Assembly: GCA_036785375.1 (NCBI GenBank)
Contig: JAWMAR010000242.1
Coordinates: 558,001 to 622,000 of the forward strand
DNA: 64,000 nucleotides
Reading direction: 5' to 3'
Source: Leucoraja ocellata
Lineage: Eukaryota
The notes beneath the pieces were generated by a model. It was not told the DNA's origin. It did not search any database and saw nothing but the letters and a program-made list of their open reading frames with translations. Both the position numbers and the translations under genes were made by a program. Positions within the stretch are counted from its first letter, which is position 1. Each line of letters opens with the position of its first letter. Below, in pieces: positions 33,900 through 46,162 of this stretch.

Positions 33900-35830
33900 G
33901 ACATAGAAACATAGAAACATAGAAAATAGCTGCAGAGGTAGGCCATTCGTCCCTTTGAGCCTGCACCGCCATTCAATATGATCATGACTGATCATCCAAC
34001 TCAGTATTCTGTACATGCCTTCTCTCCATAACCCCTGATCCCTTTCGCCACAAGGGCCACATCTAACTCCCTCTTAAATATAGCCAATGAACTGGCCTCA
34101 ACTACCTTCTGTGGCAGAGAATTCCAGAGATTCACCACTCTCTGTGTGAAAAATGTTTTCCTCATCTCGGTCCTAAAAGATTTCCCCCTTATCCTTAAAC
34201 TGTGACCCCTTGTTCTGGACTTCCCCAACATCGGGAACAATCTTCCTTCATCTAGCCTGTCCAACCCCTTAAGAATCTTGTAAGTTTCTATAAGATCCCC
34301 CCTCAATCTTCTAAATTCTAGCGAGTACAAGCCGAGTCTGTCCAGTCTTTCTTCATGAGTCCTGACATCCCAGGAATTAGTCTGGTGAACCATCTCTGTA
34401 CTCCCTCTAAGGCAAGAATGTATTTCCTCAGATTAGGAGACCAACACTGTACGCAATACTCCAGGTGTGGTCTCACCAAGACCCTGTACAAATGCAGTAG
34501 AACCTCCCTGCTCCTATACTCAAATCCTTTTGCTATATATTGCTTATATTTTGCTTATATTGTGTAAGGGGCGGAAAAGCGATATAGTTGGGATCACGGA
34601 GACATGGCTCCAGGGTGACCAAGGCTGGGAGCTGAACATCCAGGGATATTCAATATTCAGGAGAAACAGACAGAAAGGAAAAGTAGGTGGGGTAGCGTTG
34701 CTGGTTAGAGAGGCGATTAACGCAATAGAAAGGAAGGACATTAGCTTGGAGGATGTAGATTTGGTATGGGTAGAGCTGCGAAACACTAAGGGGCAGAAAA
34801 CGCTAGTGGGAATTGTGCACAGGCTATCTAACAGTAGTAGTGGAGTTGGGAATGGCATCAAACAGGAAATTAGAAATGCGTGCAACAAAGGTAAAACAGT
34901 TATAATGGGTGACTTCAATCTACATATAGATTGGATGAATCAAATTGGCAGGAGTGCTGACGAAGAGGATTTCTTGGAATGTATGTGGGATAGTTTTCTA
35001 AACCAACATGTAGAGGAACCAACGAGAGAGCAGGCTATTCTAGACTGGGTATTGAGTAATGGGGAAGGGTTAGTTAGCAGTCTTGTTGTACGTGGCCCCT
35101 TGGGCAAGAGTGACCATAATATGGTTAAGTTCTTCATTAGGATGGAGAGTGATGTCATTAATTCAGAAACAAGGGTTCGGAACTTAAAGAAAGGTAACTT
35201 TGAGGGTGTGATTTGAGTATAGGAACAGTGAAGTTCTACTGCAGTTGTAGTGCAGGGTCTGGTGAGACCACACTTGGAGTATTGCGTACAGTTTTGGTCT
35301 CCTAATCTGAGGAAAGACATTCTTGCCATAGAGAGAGTACAGAGAAGGTTCACCTGATTCCTGACTGATTCCTGGGATGTCAGGACTTTCATATGAAGAA
35401 AGACTGGATAGACTTGGCTTGTACTCGCTAGAATTTAGAAGATTGAGGAGGGATCTTATAGAAACTTACAAAATTCTTAAGGGGTTGGACAGGCTAGATG
35501 CAGGAAGATTGTTCCCGATGTTTGGGAAGTCCAGAACAAGGGGTCACAGTTTAAGGATAAGGGGGAAATCTTTTAGGACCGAGATGAAAAAAACATTTTT
35601 CACACATAGAGTGGTGAATCTCTGGAATTCTCTGCCACAAAGGGTAGTTGAGGCCAGTTCGTTGGCTATATTTAAGAGGGAGTTAGATGTGGCCCTTGTG
35701 GCTAAAGGTATCGGGGGTATGGAGAGAAGGCAGGTACAGGATACTGAGTTGGATGATCAGCCATGATCATATTGAATGGTGGTGCAGGCTCGAAGGGCCG
35801 AATGGCCTACTCCTGCATCTATTTTCTATG
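33900..35830. mobile_element. CR1 3' fragment (-; 33900-34530) and internally deleted CR1 (+; 34570-35830) immediately upstream of VH
   Basis: ORFs 34001..34393, 34467..35216 (GITETW, GDFN, SDH) and 35377..35766. Confidence 0.9.
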
Positions 35831-35834
35831 TGTC

Positions 35835-36051
35835 TAATAGATGTGATAGCGTGAGTCCATGTTGCTGTTGAGTTGGGAGCCGTGTTTCAGCTCCGCCCGC
35901 TGCACCACTCGGTTTACAAGTCCCGCCCATAGCCGCGCCCTCTTTTGCCGGGTATTTAATTCTCTCTAAGAGGGGCCGAAATCCAACTTCCTTGCAGTTG
36001 GTTTGTTGCGAGGTTCTGTACAGAAACAACAGGGTCACACTTCCCAGCGGG
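35835..36051 (+). promoter_or_regulatory. Putative VH promoter / 5'UTR
   Basis: Lies immediately upstream of the leader ATG. TATA-like TATTTAA 35953-35959, GC boxes CCGCCC at 35893 and 35923, ETS-like ACTTCC at 35986. No ATGCAAAT octamer. Confidence 0.6.
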
Positions 36052-36097
36052 ATGAGGTCGGCGGTTTCACTGAGTTTGTTCCTGGCGTTAATAGTCC
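36052..36097 (+). CDS. IGHV: IgH leader exon (MRSAVSLSLFLALIV-)
   Basis: ATG at 36052, hydrophobic signal peptide, phase-1 donor C|GTGAGT at 36098. Confidence 0.93.
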
Positions 36098-36271
36098 GTG
36101 AGTGATGTTGGACAAATTCCCCACGCAAGTTTCCCAGTGGTGTATCCACTACACCATTCCCCTTCTACCCACTCTAGAACCGTCCCAATTTATTTCCTCT
36201 TGATAATTAGAGTCGGGGATCAATGGTCAATATTTTATCCTCGCCATTCATGCCTTGTTTTTAACTTGCAG

Positions 36272-36575
36272 GTGTCCATTCCGATATCGTTCTAACCCAG
36301 CCCGAGACAGAGACGGCCACTCCTGGAGGCTCCATCACACTGACCTGTAAAGTCAGCGGGTTCAGTATTAGCAGCAACTATATGGCTTTGGTCCGTCAGG
36401 TCCCCGGGCAGGGGCTGGAGTGGCTGCTTTCCTACTACGGTTCTGGTAACGAGTACTACGCTCCGGGGATAAAGAGCCGATTCACTCCGTCCAAAGACAA
36501 TACGAATAATATCTTCACCGTGACGGCCAGCAGCCTGAAGATCGAAGACACGGCTGTCTATTACTGTGCAGGACA
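36272..36575 (+). CDS. IGHV: VH segment: (R)[100 protein letters not shown]
   Basis: Acceptor TTGCAG at 36266-36271. Open frame with both Ig cysteines and the GLEW and DTAVYYC motifs, followed by a 23-RSS. Confidence 0.97.
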
Positions 36576-36614
36576 CACAGTGTGAGCATTCAGTGTCAGA
36601 CCCGTACAAGAACG
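36576..36614 (+). other. V 3' recombination signal sequence (23-bp spacer)
   Basis: CACAGTG 36576-36582, 23 nt, ACAAGAACG 36606-36614. Confidence 0.93.
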
Positions 36615-36982
36615 GCACGTTAGGAAGTCCAGCTTTTACCATCAGACTAGAGGTGAGCAATTATTCCTACAGCTATAATAACAGTCGGGAAATGGAGGCA
36701 AAGTACCATTCGCAAATCCAACACGATATTCAAAAATGTAGTGTATTCGTGTGAGTTTTTTTATATTCGCTTCACGCATACCCATAGGCGTTGTGTAAAA
36801 CCATAGACCAGGATAATATGCTCATTCCATTATGCAAGTGAGATGAAGGGAGATTGTTGGTGTTGTGTATATTTATATTGTTGGTGTTGTGTATATTTAC
36901 TGTGTTCTCTGTGAATTGCTGGACCATTTAAAATCGTGTCGAAGGCCGTTGCAAATGAAACCTGAGTGTGAACTGTATGGGA

Positions 36983-37061
36983 GGTTTTTGTGCGGGTCTG
37001 TCTCACTGTGTACAACAGTGGGTCACGGTGCTACAAACAGCGACTTCCCCGTACAAAAACC
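36983..37061 (+). other. IGHD: D1 segment TACAACAGTGGGT (37011-37023) with 5' 12-RSS and 3' 22-RSS
   Basis: GGTTTTTGT-12-CACTGTG | D | CACGGTG-22-ACAAAAACC. Confidence 0.95.
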
Positions 37062-37309
37062 CTGACACCTAGTTTTCTCCTGCTCCAACCTACAAGCACC
37101 GTAGGAGAGGCCCAGTGAAGAAAAATCAAATAAAATGTCACCGTTTAAAGTTACATGGATTGTTTTGAGAAATGTCCAACTGTCTTCCGACCAATTAACG
37201 TTATTTTATGAGCTTTAGAAGAACAGCCTTTAGCTGTATAAGTGACAGCGAAGAGTCCCCTGGGACATATCGTCTGTGAGCAGTACATGCACCAGTTCTT
37301 GAAGAGCGA

Positions 37310-37705: not shown

Positions 37706-37744
37706 TGTTATTGTGTGAGGAAGCCCATAGAATGTAACACTGTG
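37706..37744 (+). other. J 5' recombination signal sequence (23-bp spacer)
   Basis: TGTTATTGT 37706-37714, 23 nt, CACTGTG 37738-37744. Confidence 0.9.
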
Positions 37745-37792
37745 ACTATCTTGACTACTGGGGAGGAGGCACCATGTTGACGGTAACCAACG
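37745..37792 (+). CDS. IGHJ: JH segment (YLDYWGGGTMLTVTN)
   Basis: WGXG motif; phase-1 donor G|GTAAG at 37793. Confidence 0.96.
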
Positions 37793-39840
37793 GTAAGAAA
37801 CTTCATCATATTCAGTATCTAGATGTATCCAGTTGTAATTTTACTCGATATTTCCAATAATTATATTAAATTGTTCTTCTACATTAATGACCCATTCATT
37901 GCAATGTTGGATCGATGTTGCTTTAGAATGTTATGTGATTCCGCTGCAGTGATACTCAGTATTTAAACTTGCCTTGTGTGCTATGACTTTCGATCCTTTG
38001 ACTATGAAACGGTTTCGGTTTAAGTTCATAATTAGTGGGAAAATGTGCATCAATTTGCTTTCACTAGGCTTTCTAATTGTTTGAGATTGTTGTGGTCCTT
38101 GATCTGCGATGCATCGAACTGTATTTTATGATCGACAGCAGGTACTTTGTCTCAGTTTGTTTCTTCTCAGCGCATATGAAACAAACGACAGAAACGGATA
38201 AATCCTGGGTGTAAAATGTTCAAGTGTTTAAAGTGTATGTATTAATTGGTGGAATCACCTTGCCAACTTTAATCCAATCGCTAACAAAACTTGCATGGAA
38301 GAAGTAAAATGTTCTTGCAGCAAAACACAGACTGCAAGGTTCAGCGTCAGTTATATATCTTGAAGTACAATGAATAGGGAGGAACTGTGGATGCTGATTT
38401 ATGTTGCCGATTGACACAAAGCTGGAGTAACTCTGCTTCTCCCGCTGAGTTACTCCAACTTTTTTTGTCTATCTTGAAGTACAATGAGTTGGCCATGTGA
38501 ACCAATGATACAGCAAAGCTAAGAAAGCAAAGTCCGTGAAACGCGATCTACAGAATGACAATGTACCGGGTGTAATAGGGGACAGAGGAACTAGCGTGAC
38601 GGAGGAACTGAATGAAATTCACATTATATGGAAATGTTATCTATGTAATCCACGTGTATTGTGTTATTCCTCGTTATTTCAACAATGATTGGCTCGGTGG
38701 TCAATGGAACAATGAATTTCGGTGGTCTTTGGACAGAGATATTTGGATTTTTGTGAAGAGTTTCAGCAAATTTGTGTTAAGCGATTGATCCCATCTATCG
38801 GCGGTATGATTCAGTCGGTCATTGTGGGAGACGATATTTGGTGCATAATTGGACGTGTTTGTACGTTCCAGTCGATTGGCAGCGACCGGGTATTGCTGTT
38901 GTATGAAGTGTCCGATTCGGTTATTTCAATAAACGCAAAGAAGATATATGTTTAAAAATAAAAATAACAAGAAATTATTAGAAATCATAAATAGGAAGAG
39001 TAAATGTTGCAAACACCTAGAGGGTCACGCAGCCTGTGGCGAAAGACAAATCCCATAGAGGGGAGTCGAATGACAGCTGGTAGCGCCAGAGACACGACTT
39101 CGTTCCTGAAATCAGGTGCAGACTGAGAACTGTGCGTTCTCCCTGCGGTTTGTTACTGGTTCTCTGCTTTCCTCCCACAACCCAAAAGAGTGCAGGTTTG
39201 CAGGTTAATTGACCCGGGTGATTGACCCGGGTGGGTCGGGGGTGCGATAACGTGGAACTTGTGTGTCGCCGTGGATTTGGTTGGCAGAAGGATCTATTTC
39301 TATGCTATATCTCTAATCGAAACCGAATTCGCCATGGTTTATTCTCCCAACGATAGTCGACCTGGCAAATGCTTGCTTTCCTCTTTCCACAAATGCTGCC
39401 TAACCCAATGACACATTTCTCTGTTTTATGTCAAAGATCACGAGTTTTCCCATTTGGAAAATGCGTTGAATGTAAAACGGGGAGATTTCGGAACAGCTGC
39501 AGTTCTTGAATAATTTGTAATCCGTGGATTTATTAGAAAGAGAATTTGAATTCGTGTTTGGCTATGGGCCCCAATGTCATTTAAACACAATGTTCCTCCA
39601 TTTACTGAATTGCTAATGAAAAATGTCCGATTTACGAATAGTTGTGGTAAAAAAAATGAGAGATTGGGAAAAATGGAATGTTGGAAACTGAATTTTCTTT
39701 GCTAATTTAGACAATAGAGGCCATTCGGTCCTTCGAGCTAGTACCGCCATTTAATGTGATGGCTGATCTTCCCTAATTAGTCCCCTTTCCTGCCTTCTCT
39801 CCATATCCCCTGACTCCGCTATCTTAATTTTAATTACAAA

Positions 39841-41130
39841 ACAGGGTATCCCATTAATCATTGAACAGAGTGCGAATTGAAATCCATGGCTTAAAGGAGG
39901 GTTTGAGTGGCGTTCAAATTTACATTTGCATTTATTTAATTAAGACATTGATTTAGCAACATTGTGCATTTTCACTATTATAAGTAGACTTCCTCTATGT
40001 GAATGAAAGCCTTTTCCTGTTAAAGTCACGAAGCAAACTCAGATATGTTTTAATAGATTGCAGGTTATAATTTATAATTGGTATATTTTATATTCGTTTC
40101 CTATCGGACAGTGATACAATGTTTACAATGATACAAACCCGGCTGAAGAAGGGTTTTGTCCCGAAACGTTGCCATTTTCCTTCGCTCCGTAGATGCTGCT
40201 GCACCCGCTGAGTTTCTCCAGCTTTTTTGTGTACCTTCGATTTTCCAGCATCTGCAGTTCCTTCTTGAACACAGTGATACAATGTTAATCATTCGTTCTT
40301 CCGTGCCGATCACATTGTAAACGTAAACTCGTTTTAAAGATGCTGGAAACTGAACTGAATTGCATCAACATTAATTTTAATTGATTATTATTGATTTCAT
40401 TGAGGCAATGGTGTACACAGACAAACATTTGAAACATGTGCCAATTTATTTAATTACGAAGTATTAACATGTTCTTACAATTTATATGTTACATTTAGTT
40501 TCCAGAAGTTGTGGTACATAACCTTTATTAATTCAGATATTGTATTGAGGGAGTTCTTTTTAATCCTTACCAATGCAATCTCATACATGTTTTTAATCTG
40601 GTATGAATGTAATGTTCTTGCCGGCTGGTTTGCTTTTTGGAATGTCCTTGCAATTACGGTCGACATAGAAATGATCGGTATATTTTCGTGAGTGATGGGA
40701 CAACAAAATACAGTTAAAAAGTAACATTTGAAGTGTGTTATTTGTCGCTACCATTTCAATCCCATCCACCCCCTTAGTTGGTTCCGTTCGATGGACACAT
40801 TTAAGGCCAAATTACACGAACAAGATTGTGATTGTTTATTTTTTGTCTTCTCCCAAATTATGTTCGGGACCCGATGTGGAAACCACAGCCATCCTTCCAT
40901 TGTTTCTGATTTTATCGGATAATCTCTGAACCATTTATGCCAAAAACTCTTCCATCTTCCTTCAAATCAAAAGTTTAGCCACGGGCATTCTCAGTGGCCC
41001 AAGCGAAACCTGCCTAAATTATTTAATTTTAATTAAATAAATGCAAATGTAATTTTGAACGTCAGTCAAACCCTCGTTTGAACCATTGATTTCAATTCCC
41101 ACTCTGTTCACGGATTAGTGGGATAACTGT
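39841..41130. repeat. ~100-bp imperfect inverted repeat (arms 39841-39943 and 41029-41130), each arm with a perfect Ig octamer
   Basis: The reverse complement of the left arm aligns to the right arm (~85% by eye). ATTTGCAT 39924-39931 and ATGCAAAT 41041-41048. Confidence 0.85.
40124..40270 (+). mobile_element. Penelope-derived pLTR fragment in the J-C intron with a 16-bp flanking direct repeat
   Basis: ACAGTGATACAATGTT at 40108 and 40271; CTGAAGAAGGG…CCCGAAACGTT core. Confidence 0.8.
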
Positions 41131-41189
41131 TCGATTCAAATAGCAGAGAAAATGTTGTTTCCAACATTGCACATCATTTCACCAATTTT

Positions 41190-41660
41190 CATTTAGTTGG
41201 GTACACGGGACAACCCCTGACACAGACTGGCCGATTCCCCGAACTCTTCCTCTTGTTCCCATGCAGAACTCATCGACTTCATTGTCTACAAACTTTGACC
41301 GTACGATCAAATTCCCCGGGTCTATCCCCGACACATACCTCCCCTTTGTTGATCTCACCGTCTCCATCGCAGGAGATAGACTATCGACTGACGTAAATGA
41401 CAAATCTACGGACTCCCACAGCTATCAGGACTACACCTCTTCCAACCTTGCCTCCTGCAAAGATTCTATGGTCTATTCCCAAATTCATCCATCTCCGTGC
41501 AACTGCTCCCAAGATGAGTTGTTCCATACCAGGATATCCGAGGTCCTCATTCTTTAGGGAGCGGGAATTCTCCACTTTTACAATAGACGAGACTCTCACA
41601 CGTGTCTACACTGTATCCCGTAGATCCGCCCTTGCTCCATCATCCCCAGTCGCAACAAGG
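41190..41660 (+). mobile_element. Penelope-like RT thumb remnant in the J-C intron
   Basis: LPFVDLTV…LSTDV…TDSHSY.DYTSS..ASCKDS..YSQ. Confidence 0.75.
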
Positions 41661-41963
41661 AGTTTGGTGAGATTGTAACACATACGCCAACGTTAGTTAT
41701 AGCCATTGAGCATTCCTGAGAAATCCTGGGAATTTTACAGTACTTAATACTGGAGGCCTATCGATATATTTCCAACTCGAAATTGTGCGTACATTTGGCA
41801 GTAACTGCCAGATATTGGCACCCCAAGACATTTTCAGCCAATGTTTTCCAAGGTGGGATCAAGGCGGAATGATTAACTAATAGTGTGTGATACTCAGGTG
41901 AAGTTGCATGAAATAGACAAGAGAGAGAGAGAGTTTAACATTCATGTGGCCTTTGCTTTGCAG

Positions 41964-42260
41964 CGGCTCCATCCGCGCCCAGTCCCTTCATTCTCTTCAC
42001 CTGCGAGGATCAAGGCTCCGGTGATTCGTTCACCTATGGTTGTTTGGCGTTGGGCTATTCCCCAGCGGGCGCCCGTGTTTCTTGGAAGAAAGATGATACA
42101 CAACTGGGCGACGGAGTGAAGGACTATCCGGCAGTGTTCAATAAGTTGGGAACTTACACCCGGAGCAGCGAGTTAACCATCACCGCGGCGGTGGCAGCGG
42201 GAGGTGACATCTTCTGCGTGGTTCAGCACAACCACAACGAGTATAAAGTGAAAGTACCAG
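41964..42260 (+). CDS. IGHM: IgM CH1 exon (AAPSAPSPFILFTCEDQ...YGCLALGYSP...VSWKK...IFCVVQHNHNEYKVKVP)
   Basis: TTGCAG acceptor and GT donor at 42261. C1-set Cys/Trp/Cys plus the N-terminal Cys for the light-chain disulfide. Confidence 0.94.
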
Positions 42261-42309
42261 GTTTGTGTTGGGGTGCATCGCGAGGCCGAGGGTGGAGTTG
42301 AGAGTCGGG

Positions 42310-42725
42310 AGTCAAGAATGTTTTATTGTCATATGTCCCAGATAGAACATGCACACATACTCAAAACAAACAATAATAGTGCAATAATAATACAATAACT
42401 ATTGTAGTTCAGAGCATATGAGGTTGTAATGTTTAATAGCCTGATGGTTGTAGGGAAGAAGCTGTTCCTCAACCTGGACGTTAGTTTTCAGGCTCCTGTA
42501 CCTTCTTCCCGATGGCAGTGGTGAGATGAGTGTGTGGCCAGGATGGTGTGGGTCTCTGATGATGTTGGATGCCTTTTTGAGGCAGCGACTCCATTACATC
42601 CCTTTGATGATGGGAGGGGGGGGGGGGGGGGGCGAGCCGGTTATGGAATGGGCAAGGGTCACAACTTTTTGCAATCTTTTCTGCTCCTGGATGTTCAAGT
42701 TGCCGAACCAGGCCGTGATGCAATC
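42310..42725 (-). mobile_element. Rex1/Babar 3' fragment in the CH1-CH2 intron
   Basis: Reverse strand encodes AWFGN…HHPGH…GRRYRSL-like sequence and 3'UTR. Confidence 0.75.
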
Positions 42726-43588
42726 CATATAATTCGCGGGATTTGACAATTGAAGATAAGTACTTGACCTAATGTGCCCTGTTCGGTTTTATTCTTCATG
42801 TCATACTGAATGTCGAACGCTCATCTGAGCTCCACGATCCACCTGGTCAAAGACAGACAATTCATGTCTATATAGGGATGTGTAAGTGTAGCTGCATCCA
42901 CAGATGTGATGTAACATCTGGAACACGGATGAAACTCTATTCCAAACTTAACCACCAAAGACCAAAAACACTTAAACCACCCGCCACATTATTCCAGCCC
43001 TTTGCTTTTTTTTAAATCAAACAAAACGGTGAGGTGTGTTTCCAGGCACCGAGGGGCGAGAGCGATATTCATAATACCGAAGCGTTCTTGTGATGGAACG
43101 AAAGGCGGTGCTTCAAATATCGAGACAATTCACCACTCACAAAATCATAAAACACAAAAAAAAATACTTGTAGAGAGCTTGAAAAGAGTGCTGATCAATT
43201 TATTATCATCACCAGCGCGTCCATATAATTCGCGAGGAACTGATCTATACATAGATACGTTACATTTTAACTGGCGAACAATCGAAGCGGCTGAGTGCAT
43301 CATGTTGAGAACATTATCAAGAATATTAAAAGCGCAGACACAGTCACAGAGGACAAAAGCAGAAGTCGGCCCATTACATCCCTGTGACAACGACACCGAA
43401 CTATAAGTTCCCCATTTACGAGCACTCGATGTACCATGATAAACAAAGAATTTAGTAGCATCTCGGGAAGTCCAAGTGAGTGGACGGCTACTTTTAATCA
43501 GAAAATGTGATTTTTTCTTTTGGTGAAAATATTGGGTGTCATTATTAATCGACGATGAGCAATTCCAATGAAGTTTATTTCCTTTCAG

Positions 43589-43906
43589 TCCGCGTGGTAT
43601 ATCATCCTACCGTCACCATTACCATAACTGCTCTTGATGAAATCAAGCGCAGCAGAAAAGCGATCGCCGTGTGTTTGGTCAACGATTTCACCCCAGCCAT
43701 ATTTACTGTGAACTGGCTGAAGAATGGAAAGCCATTGGATTCTGGCATCGTCACCTCTCCCGCCTTCCAGGTGAACGATACCGGTAACTTCTCGGCGACC
43801 AGCCAGTTGACATTCACAGCTGAAGAGTGGTTCGCAGATTTCGTCTATACCTGCCAAGTCAACCATGGAAACGATTTGACAAGCCAAAACATCAGTATGC
43901 CTTCAG
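43589..43906 (+). CDS. IGHM: IgM CH2 exon (VRVVYHPTVT...AVCLVNDFTP...VNWLKNGK...YTCQVNH...SMPS)
   Basis: TTTCAG acceptor, GTAAG donor, C1-set motifs; matches ORF 43555..43989. Confidence 0.95.
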
Positions 43907-44361
43907 GTAAGAAATACAACCGTGGTGTGTCTCGGGATATTAGTGTAAACATTAGCGCTCACGGTTGTTTTTTTATTTGTACCTATTAATACTTCTACCC
44001 CTCCCCCCCCCCCCCCCCCCCACCCCCCACCCAGACTCTCAGTCTAAAGGAGGGTCTCGACCAGAAACAGCATGTATTCATTTTCTGCAGAGATGGTGCC
44101 TGACCCGCTGAGTTACAGTACTCCAGCTCTGCGTGTCTAGCGTGGTATAGCCCATGATGCGACCTCTCATTTCATTTAGTGTGTCGTTCTCTGCACAGAG
44201 ACAAAAGTCAGTTCATGACGATTTAGGACCCATGTTCCCAGAATCACTAATCAGAAGGGGTCATGTACACATTCAAGTTTTGGGGGCGGATGATTGGTGT
44301 AAACCTTCGATCCCGGTTACTCCTGCAAATGCTTATGTTCACATTCATTATTGTGCCACAG

Positions 44362-44664
44362 ATGTTGATTCCTGCGACAAACTGATTATTAAAATCCTTC
44401 CACCACAAGTTGAACAAGAGTTAATGGAGATGACCGTGACGTTAACCTGTCTGGTATCCGATGCACCTTATGGTATCACAGTATCTTGGAAACGTGGGAA
44501 TGTACCTTTGGTATCATACATCCAGCCCACAGGAAATGCAGATATCGTACAGAGCAAAGTCAACATTTCGACTCAAGACTGGCTGAGTGGGGATTATTTC
44601 GAATGCGCGGTGAGCCATGGTAATATGCCAAAGCCAAAAACTGAACGAATCAACTGGAAGAAAG
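44362..44664 (+). CDS. IGHM: IgM CH3 exon (DVDSCDKLIIKILPP...LTCLVSDAPYG...VSWKR...FECAVSH...WKK)
   Basis: CACAG acceptor, GTGAG donor, C1-set motifs and an extra N-terminal Cys (likely inter-H-chain). Confidence 0.95.
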
Positions 44665-45770
44665 GTGAGCCGGTGTGGGCCAGAGGTGACTGGTGCACTT
44701 TTCTTCTGAGATAAAGCTAAAATAAATGATTGAGATCACTCCGTCGGCGAAGCAATATCTATGCAAAATGAAATAGTGCTAAGACTTCACTGATCAGAGA
44801 TGGAAAAGAGAGAATACGAGATGACTTTGCATGAAATGAATGTTGTAACTTGCAGGGATATGGGTTTGCCTACCAAATTACCATGTGGTGATGGTGTCAG
44901 TAGATCGCAGATACTCTCGAGTTGCAGAAATGCCCGTTTCTGAGCTAGGCACATGAAACGAGTTATTCGAAAAAAAACAAAAACCTTCAAATGCCGTATA
45001 TCGGAAAGACGTCAACTTAATGCAGAACATTTAATATTGGCTCCAATGGTCTGCATCTACACAAACGATCGGAGGAATGCCATTCTGAAAGCTTGCCATA
45101 GGGATTAGATATAACACCGAGGAAGACCGCAGACAAAGAGCCTAGAAGTGTTTTGTTTTCCATTTTGCTTGTATTGTCCAGGTCAAAATGGCCATTTCCA
45201 AATTCCCTTTTTACTCTCAACTCCGTCCAACATTATCTCTGTAACTTAAGAATGGGTCATTTCCCCCACGTCATACAAAGGCATCTCTTTTTGCGTACAC
45301 ACTGTCTGACGTGCTCTTTGTTTCCTGCGACCCCTGAATTCATTTTACAATTCCATCATTTGCATCGATTTCGAAAACGCACTTCACAAAGCATCACCTT
45401 GTACGCTCAGCATTCTCCGCTGGCATCCACTAACTACTCCTGCCATGGGTTTGATAACGTCTCATTCAACTGCATTTAGCAATAAATGACAAAAGGAGCA
45501 GAGTCAACCATGGCCATCAGAAATAACATGGATCAGAGAGGGCGCTTGGCTTGATCTTGTGTTGTGAGTGTGTGAAGTGATTCATACAAATCTTCTGCCG
45601 TGCACAGGAGAGACGCACATTCAGGTGTATATGTCTGAACAAAGAGACAAGTCACAAAAGGGGAATGCAATGCCGTTAATACTGTCGGTTGGCAGTTTAC
45701 TCACGGATATATTAGCTTTTAATCGCTTTAACCATCTTGTATAATAAACGCAATTTCAATTGTTCCCTAG

Positions 45771-46162
45771 GTCAACATCTGCTGCCACCTTCCGTCTCAG
45801 TCCTTCTGCCGCCGACAGAAGAAATCTCCGCCCACAAGACTATCACCCTCACCTGCTTCGTGAGAGGATTCTCCCCTCGCAGGGTCTTCGTCACGTGGAC
45901 ACTTGATGACAAGCGGGTGGATAAGAGCAAGTACAAGAACACCGAGGTGGAGGCGGAGAACGGCAATGATACCTTCTTCACATACAGCCTGTTATCCGTT
46001 GGGGCAGAGGAGTGGGCTAGCGGAGCCTCCTTCTCCTGTCTAGTGGGGCACGAAGCACTCCCCATGAAGACCATCGTCAGAACGGTCAATAAGTCCAGCG
46101 GTAAACCCAGTTTTGTCAACGTTTCCCTTGTATTAATGGACACTGTCAATTCCTGTCAATGA
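45771..46162 (+). CDS. IGHM: IgM CH4 exon plus secretory tailpiece (…[25 protein letters not shown])
   Basis: CCCTAG acceptor and C1-set motifs. Internal donor G|GTAAA at 46101 for the membrane splice. Tailpiece has an NVS sequon and a penultimate Cys; TGA ends at 46162. Confidence 0.96.

Follow-up and report, generated by a model that had tools for sequence, protein, structure and literature searches.

Two inverted modules, each carrying a perfect octamer, lie in the J-CH1 intron of a V-D-D-J-C1-C4 gene annotated from the sequence of the 64-kb window (the whole stretch of DNA analysed, 64,000 nucleotides) as an IgM cluster, and they raise the question of whether their symmetry serves the immunoglobulin gene or records how the intron was assembled. 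The initial annotation read the pair as a symmetric intronic enhancer supplying an octamer control missing from the promoter, with the terminal inverted repeats (TIRs) of an old transposon as the alternative. Our analysis points elsewhere: the right arm duplicates the left region in inverted form over 176 bp, was probably pasted once by template switching during repair of a germline break, and the symmetry is likely functionless. The copy went in at one point, in one orientation and one time, before the approximately 41 IgM clusters multiplied, and the two arms have since diverged freely.

The host gene and the anatomy of the pair

The host cluster comprises V-D-D-J, four constant exons and a secretory tail. 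Its VH exon (36265..36575, + strand, 23-RSS at 36576) and JH segment (37745..37793, +, 23-RSS ending at 37744) are followed by the CH1 exon (41963..42260, +) and, at the far end, by CH4 with the secretory tail (45770..46162, +), the best solved relatives of which are mu chains; IgW-type six-domain clusters elsewhere in the genome have a CH1 only about 30% alike to that of the host cluster. Forty of the 41 IgM loci found hold V, J and CH1 and are the complete clusters scored throughout, while the 41st ends at a contig edge. The VH segments of all 40 clusters (window 36265-36575 and its paralogues) carry L, once M, before VRQ/IRQ, a position at which a conserved Trp is usual. D1 (36981-37062) has heptamers on both sides that are usable with 12- or 22-nt spacers, and upstream of the cluster, in window positions 1-26053, lie several multi-kb direct segmental repeats of 93-97% identity. 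In 20 of the 40 clusters (L032-L047, L078-L101) the V-J distance is shortened, meaning partly or fully germline-joined, with one of them, L097, fully joined; passages of PMC3308330 give germline-joined genes and cluster organisation as typical of cartilaginous fish.

That an inverted, octamer-bearing pair of about 100 bp occupies this intron was borne out, the core arms at 39847-39943 and 41029-41125 being 97 nt long, 89% complementary and 1085 nt apart (91 of 104 positions match if one gap is allowed). The extent first given to them, 39841-39943 and 41029-41130, proved too short, since homology runs from outer limits at approximately 39650 and 41194 to inner limits at approximately 39958 and 41016, so that the full arms, at 39650-39958 (interrupted by a repeat piece at about 39708-39826) and 41016-41191, measure about 176 bp each. 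No homology was detected beyond their outer ends (score 24, against a mean of 25.6 in shuffles).

The left, likely donor copy consists of an outer part (39650..39707, +) that pairs with 41138-41194 and an inner part (39827..39958, +) that contains the octamer core. Between them sits the high-copy repeat piece of about 120 nt (39708..39826, -), recognised by self-BLAST matches in the window and by a gap in the arm alignment. This piece, which we take to be the 3' end of a CR1-like LINE, reaches a depth of about 10^6 in one genome run and is missing from the right copy, and it would have entered the left copy after the duplication. The spacer (39959..40945) is IgM-intron-specific sequence and lies in one orientation in all 40 scored candidates; within it, subfamily 1 carries a SINE-like insertion with a 16-nt direct repeat (40108..40286, joint 40107 to 40271) that is missing from the subfamily 2 loci aligned. 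The right copy (41016..41191, -) is found at 40 of 40 loci and includes, within 41059..41099 on the minus strand, a CRE half-site (41059-64) and an Ets-IRF-like motif (41090-99), labels that we assign by consensus motifs. A search of Rfam gave 0 matches, and the arms pair in a predicted RNA fold, computed with no shuffle control, as any such repeat would.

The right arm, the retroelement and common descent

The decisive observation concerns what flanks the right arm. Immediately before it lies the 5' piece of an old reverse-transcriptase retroelement fragment (40946..41015, +, element positions 508-578), presumably Penelope-like, and immediately after it the 3' piece of the same fragment (41192..41660, +, element positions 578-1089). 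The 5' piece matches the retroelement at 48 of 70 ungapped positions, against at most 31 for other 70-mers of the intron. In all 40 complete clusters the right arm sits between these consecutive pieces at a single point with no base lost, the insertion measuring 176-180 nt in 38 clusters and 111 nt in the two that have lost about 65 nt of the right arm. Because it interrupts a continuous retroelement, the right arm must be a derived copy and the arms are not the ends of an element; the left copy is thus the likely donor, from which the right one was probably templated in inverted orientation, a single time and ahead of the multiplication of the clusters. As to the element itself, a genomic copy gave a weak Pfam RVT_1 match (E 0.0035, below the cut-off) and a second copy had no Pfam match.

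Each junction of the right arm shows 2-3 nt of microhomology, a match so short that it may be chance, and neither shows a target-site duplication (TSD). It is from these microhomologies that we infer an MMBIR-type repair pathway, a route to templated insertions described in PMC8421209. The likeness to such template-switch insertions lies in a short copy of nearby sequence, inverted, with no target base lost and microhomology at the junctions; the IgM copy differs in being ancient, fixed in the germline and multiplied with the clusters.

A query with the arm returned 81 candidates, of which 40 were scored, and all 30 loci fetched were whole paralogous introns with both arms, while a spacer query returned 41 candidates. 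A 29-nt core pattern allowing up to 3 mismatches matched 80 times, every time at one of the 41 IgM loci (control, 0), a second arm pattern did so in 53 of 53 cases, and two outer-arm patterns fell at IgM loci in 50 of 52 and 32 of 34 cases, the remainder being one 62-nt piece present twice on contig C109. Contig depth over the arms, which is summed and is no copy number, resembled that of unique intron bins in four genome runs (593 and 705 in X1), against 10^4 to 10^6 for repeat bins. A dispersed MITE family away from immunoglobulin loci, which the initial annotation had named as a refutation, was accordingly rejected, with pattern searches that would miss copies diverged by much more than 15%.

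Among the 40 introns we distinguish two subfamilies and a lineage with a single member, separated by 7-9%, with about 91% identity between subfamilies, and since the clusters share common descent both arms are present in all of them. Between subfamilies, CH1-CH3 (window 41963-44670) has diverged as fast as the introns (87-91%), and CH4 is 97% identical. In a tree of the arms, all left arms cluster in a clade that excludes the right arms (support 0.998), and the left-right distance of 0.149-0.165, no smaller within than across subfamilies, exceeds the 0.07-0.09 for introns of different subfamilies. Majority states of the two arms differ at 8 of 101 sites, and of 62 derived states 2 show mirroring within one locus (two loci with the deletion left out). 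The clades, the distances and the scarcity of mirrored states together place the duplication before the deepest split and imply that the arms were not homogenised.

Among the loci no outgroup without the insertion was seen, and the genome runs examined carry the same subfamilies. Matches to the secretory tail numbered 69, of which 30 lie away from arm loci (on contigs C10, C404, C755, C1196, C1356, C1454, C1461, C1544, C1661, C2034, C2299, C3295 and C4713 of genome G000); the 10 of these 30 examined are C-region fragments with no V, J or CH1 within 18-20 kb, and no more divergent IgM cluster to serve as an outgroup was found among them. The ten comprise orphan fragments spanning CH2-CH4 or CH3-CH4, or a broken CH4; several of them follow complete clusters as tandem arrays and have open CH4 frames.

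Octamers, constraint and the enhancer readings

The left octamer (39924..39931, -) is intact in 40 of 40 complete clusters and the right one (41041..41048, +) in 30 of 40, so that conservation across paralogous clusters holds for the left site and fails for part of the right. The two had been described as the only perfect octamers found within the gene, which is incorrect, as a third lies in the CH3-CH4 intron (45358..45365, -); of 5 orphan paralogous fragments in which this site can be seen, 3 have it intact; the window as a whole holds 4 perfect octamers against 3.36 expected. The 24-nt block is indeed identical in both arms, as claimed, but its contrast with drifted flanks is within chance (P 0.41), since simulations that placed 11 mismatches in 97 nt gave an identical run of at least 24 in 41% of cases. 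Since the two arm octamers come from one duplication they count as one event, and when the intron without the duplicate was shuffled, at least one octamer appeared in 30% of 1000 shuffles.

The reading that survives best beside the templated copy, and is compatible with that origin, holds that the left core (about 39850-40110), where the octamer has a CRE half-site and motifs of Ets-IRF-like and ETS type nearby, acts as a conventional enhancer core of the IgM intron, comparable to E-mu or catfish E-mu3', to which the duplicate is incidental; we think it less likely than not, yet a reasonable lead. It draws on the octamer kept in every cluster and on the promoter, where, as the initial annotation implied, no octamer within one mismatch occurs in 35501-36052, a parallel to the absence of promoter octamers reported for shark IgH genes in passages of PMC2435157; OCA-B orthologues also exist in cartilaginous fish, according to part of PMC13043367. 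Only 0.04% of 4873 background windows combine an Ets-IRF-like motif and a CRE half-site, and the slowest 200 columns of the intron start at 39907 (scan P 0.069 on raw counts). Against this, the slow-stretch signal fades on other measures (P 0.35-0.93), 13% of the 8-mers of the intron are equally invariant, and background windows carry two or more of the motif classes in 12% of cases and three or more in 2%. The supporting motifs of the left core are themselves kept in only part of the clusters (Ets-IRF-like motif in 22 of 40 clusters, CRE half-site in 21 of 40, a PU.1-like site at 39988 in 17 of 40), neither arm contains a muE5, muE2 or muE3 E-box, and the IgW J-C introns of five near-identical clusters have no arm homology and no perfect octamer between J and CH1 (5 of 5).

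Tests of constraint point both ways. Substitutions per site amount to 0.41 in the left arm, 0.33 in the right and 0.41 in the intron, with composition-matched P values for arm constraint of 0.59 (left) and 0.23 (right). In the 24-nt core of the left arm 9.1 substitutions would be expected and 2 are seen (P 0.03, uncorrected), and the contrast of core and remainder between the arms gives P 0.06. Of the exons used as controls, CH1 too appeared unconstrained when tested in this way (0.44 per site, P 0.58), and CH4 was constrained (97%, versus 83-94% for neighbouring introns), from which it follows that power for short motifs is low. Three raw-read RNA runs covered the repeats and hardly covered the IgM exons, and are therefore uninformative on intronic transcription; one contig run, guessed to be RNA, gave thin coverage over parts of the intron.

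A more elaborate version, in which the left module would be the hitherto unlocated intronic enhancer core of cartilaginous-fish IgM clusters, supplying the octamer missing from their promoters, and the accidental inverted copy would act as a spare, with motifs decaying on alternate arms by subfamily, appears unlikely. None of the 40 clusters has lost both of its octamers or both of its Ets-IRF-like motifs; however, 33 of the 94 arm 8-mers are kept in the same way, and one intact motif per cluster was therefore rejected as a sign of selection, the pattern being common among arm k-mers.

That both arms might jointly form a symmetric palindromic enhancer, with the duplicate kept by selection, seems less probable still. 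It could appeal to the presence of both arms in 40 of 40 clusters, to the right arm's 31 substitutions against 38 expected and to the single intact Ets-IRF-like motif per cluster lying on opposite arms in different subfamilies, but that motif pattern rests on three events. The right arm is moreover a late insertion into a retroelement, and the repeat piece breaks the left arm. The right octamer has gone from 10 of the 40 clusters by two different changes, which parsimony resolves into 4 losses (8 of 20 germline-joined clusters versus 2 of 20 unjoined, the clusters not being independent). Nor do the arms show concerted evolution, the hallmark that PMC3068965 reports for the mammalian 3'RR palindrome. 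With a derived right arm, a lost octamer, no concerted evolution and a rate not below that of the intron, the inference of a symmetric design was not upheld.

Comparison with known immunoglobulin enhancers gives a mixed picture. The mammalian E-mu enhancer contains an octamer and a muE2/muE5/muE3 E-box cluster. The IgM arms share with it a position between J and Cmu (here between JH and Cmu1), a perfect octamer, for which the chance of one in the intron is 0.30, and an AT-rich context; they differ from it in having no such E-box cluster and in being a duplicated pair, which E-mu is not, and in being known from sequence alone. Catfish E-mu3' is likewise a fish IgH element with a pair of octamers, yet in PMC1800861 its variant octamers and a muE5 form one functional core 3' of Cmu, whereas the perfect octamers of the IgM arms stand 1.1 kb apart, derive from one duplication and have no muE5 beside them. 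The mammalian IgH 3'RR palindrome, as described in parts of PMC3068965 and PMC9936319, is also an IgH-linked pair of inverted arms separated by a spacer, but those arms are about 3 kb long, lie 3' of the constant genes and keep their self-matching despite turnover, in contrast to the IgM arms, which are 176 bp long, intronic and freely diverging, and which do not co-evolve. Our literature search found no cartilaginous-fish IgH intronic enhancer and no mention of this element; several primary papers on shark and skate IgH genes lay outside it.

Mobile-element readings and the order of events

The C109 piece (62-70 nt of the outer left arm) lies at G000:C109:3451254-3451334 and 3301098-3301178 (L105, L103), between repeat fragments, its two copies lying one in each half of a large inverted segmental duplication; its host is apparently an intron of what we take to be a short-chain-dehydrogenase-like gene. 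With 92% identity to subfamily 2 left arms, 85% to subfamily 1 and 82% to right arms, it is likely a second stray copy from the donor spot that gave rise to the right arm. Alternatively, the arm could be a short mobile unit of low copy number that integrated at three places (left, right and C109), in favour of which each of the copies stops close to one A/T run, at about 39650; we regard this as very improbable, given that the right insertion has no TSD, that the piece on C109 resembles left arms more than right ones and is wedged between repeat pieces, and that pattern searches of the genome yielded no further copies.

The proposal that the arms are TIRs of an old non-autonomous, Mutator-like DNA transposon is now barely credible, because what looked like its right-hand TSD belongs to the retroelement and carries on from the piece on the inner side of the right arm; that arm is thus no element end. 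It had first looked strong, and it was this continuity across the right arm that overturned it and disposed of the transposon alternative raised at the outset. A direct repeat of 10-11 nt borders the arms on the outside (10 matches and a single indel, a frequency of 0.0003 among random pairs), long TIRs with a TSD of 8-11 bp define MULEs in passages of PMC6446971, the genome has 13 MULE-domain matches and the outer-arm piece on C109 lies outside immunoglobulin loci. Yet the flanking repeat needs two edits in subfamilies 2 and 3, and near 9 of 10 MULE-domain loci there is no arm homology, the tenth giving a 50-nt match (E 0.035). The resemblance to Mutator-like elements (long inverted repeats, a unique interior, the apparent flanking repeat) meets the difference that the right arm lies inside a continuous retroelement and that no family exists in the genome; the unique interior itself, the spacer, also counts against this origin. 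The same source (PMC6446971, in part) doubts earlier vertebrate MULE reports. The 13 MULE-domain matches occupy loci L140-L171 (C101, C100, C8, C81, C96, C4480, C956, C1224 and C887), of which some have long open frames and are surrounded by short inverted tandem repeats, and beside some lies the reverse-transcriptase retroelement that 40946-41015 matches.

Under the templated-copy explanation, the history of the intron would have begun with a retroelement landing between J and C, followed by a germline break within that old element. Repair would then have used as template approximately 190 nt of the other strand, located 1.1 kb upstream, with rejoining at 2-3 nt microhomologies. A LINE-like piece would subsequently have entered the left copy, the IgM clusters would have amplified, a SINE would have entered one subfamily, and the right octamer would have decayed in some clusters. 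Any Oct-binding role would, on this account, rest on the left, original octamer.

As a repair scar the insertion is ordinary in itself, but it orders four later events and provides a clean lineage marker, in that the 41 IgM loci found in this genome all trace back to a single cluster in which it was already present. If shark and ray IgM clusters each carry an octamer-dependent enhancer, the left core at about 39850-40110 would be the candidate piece, and the 10 clusters without the right octamer would serve as natural, built-in mutants.
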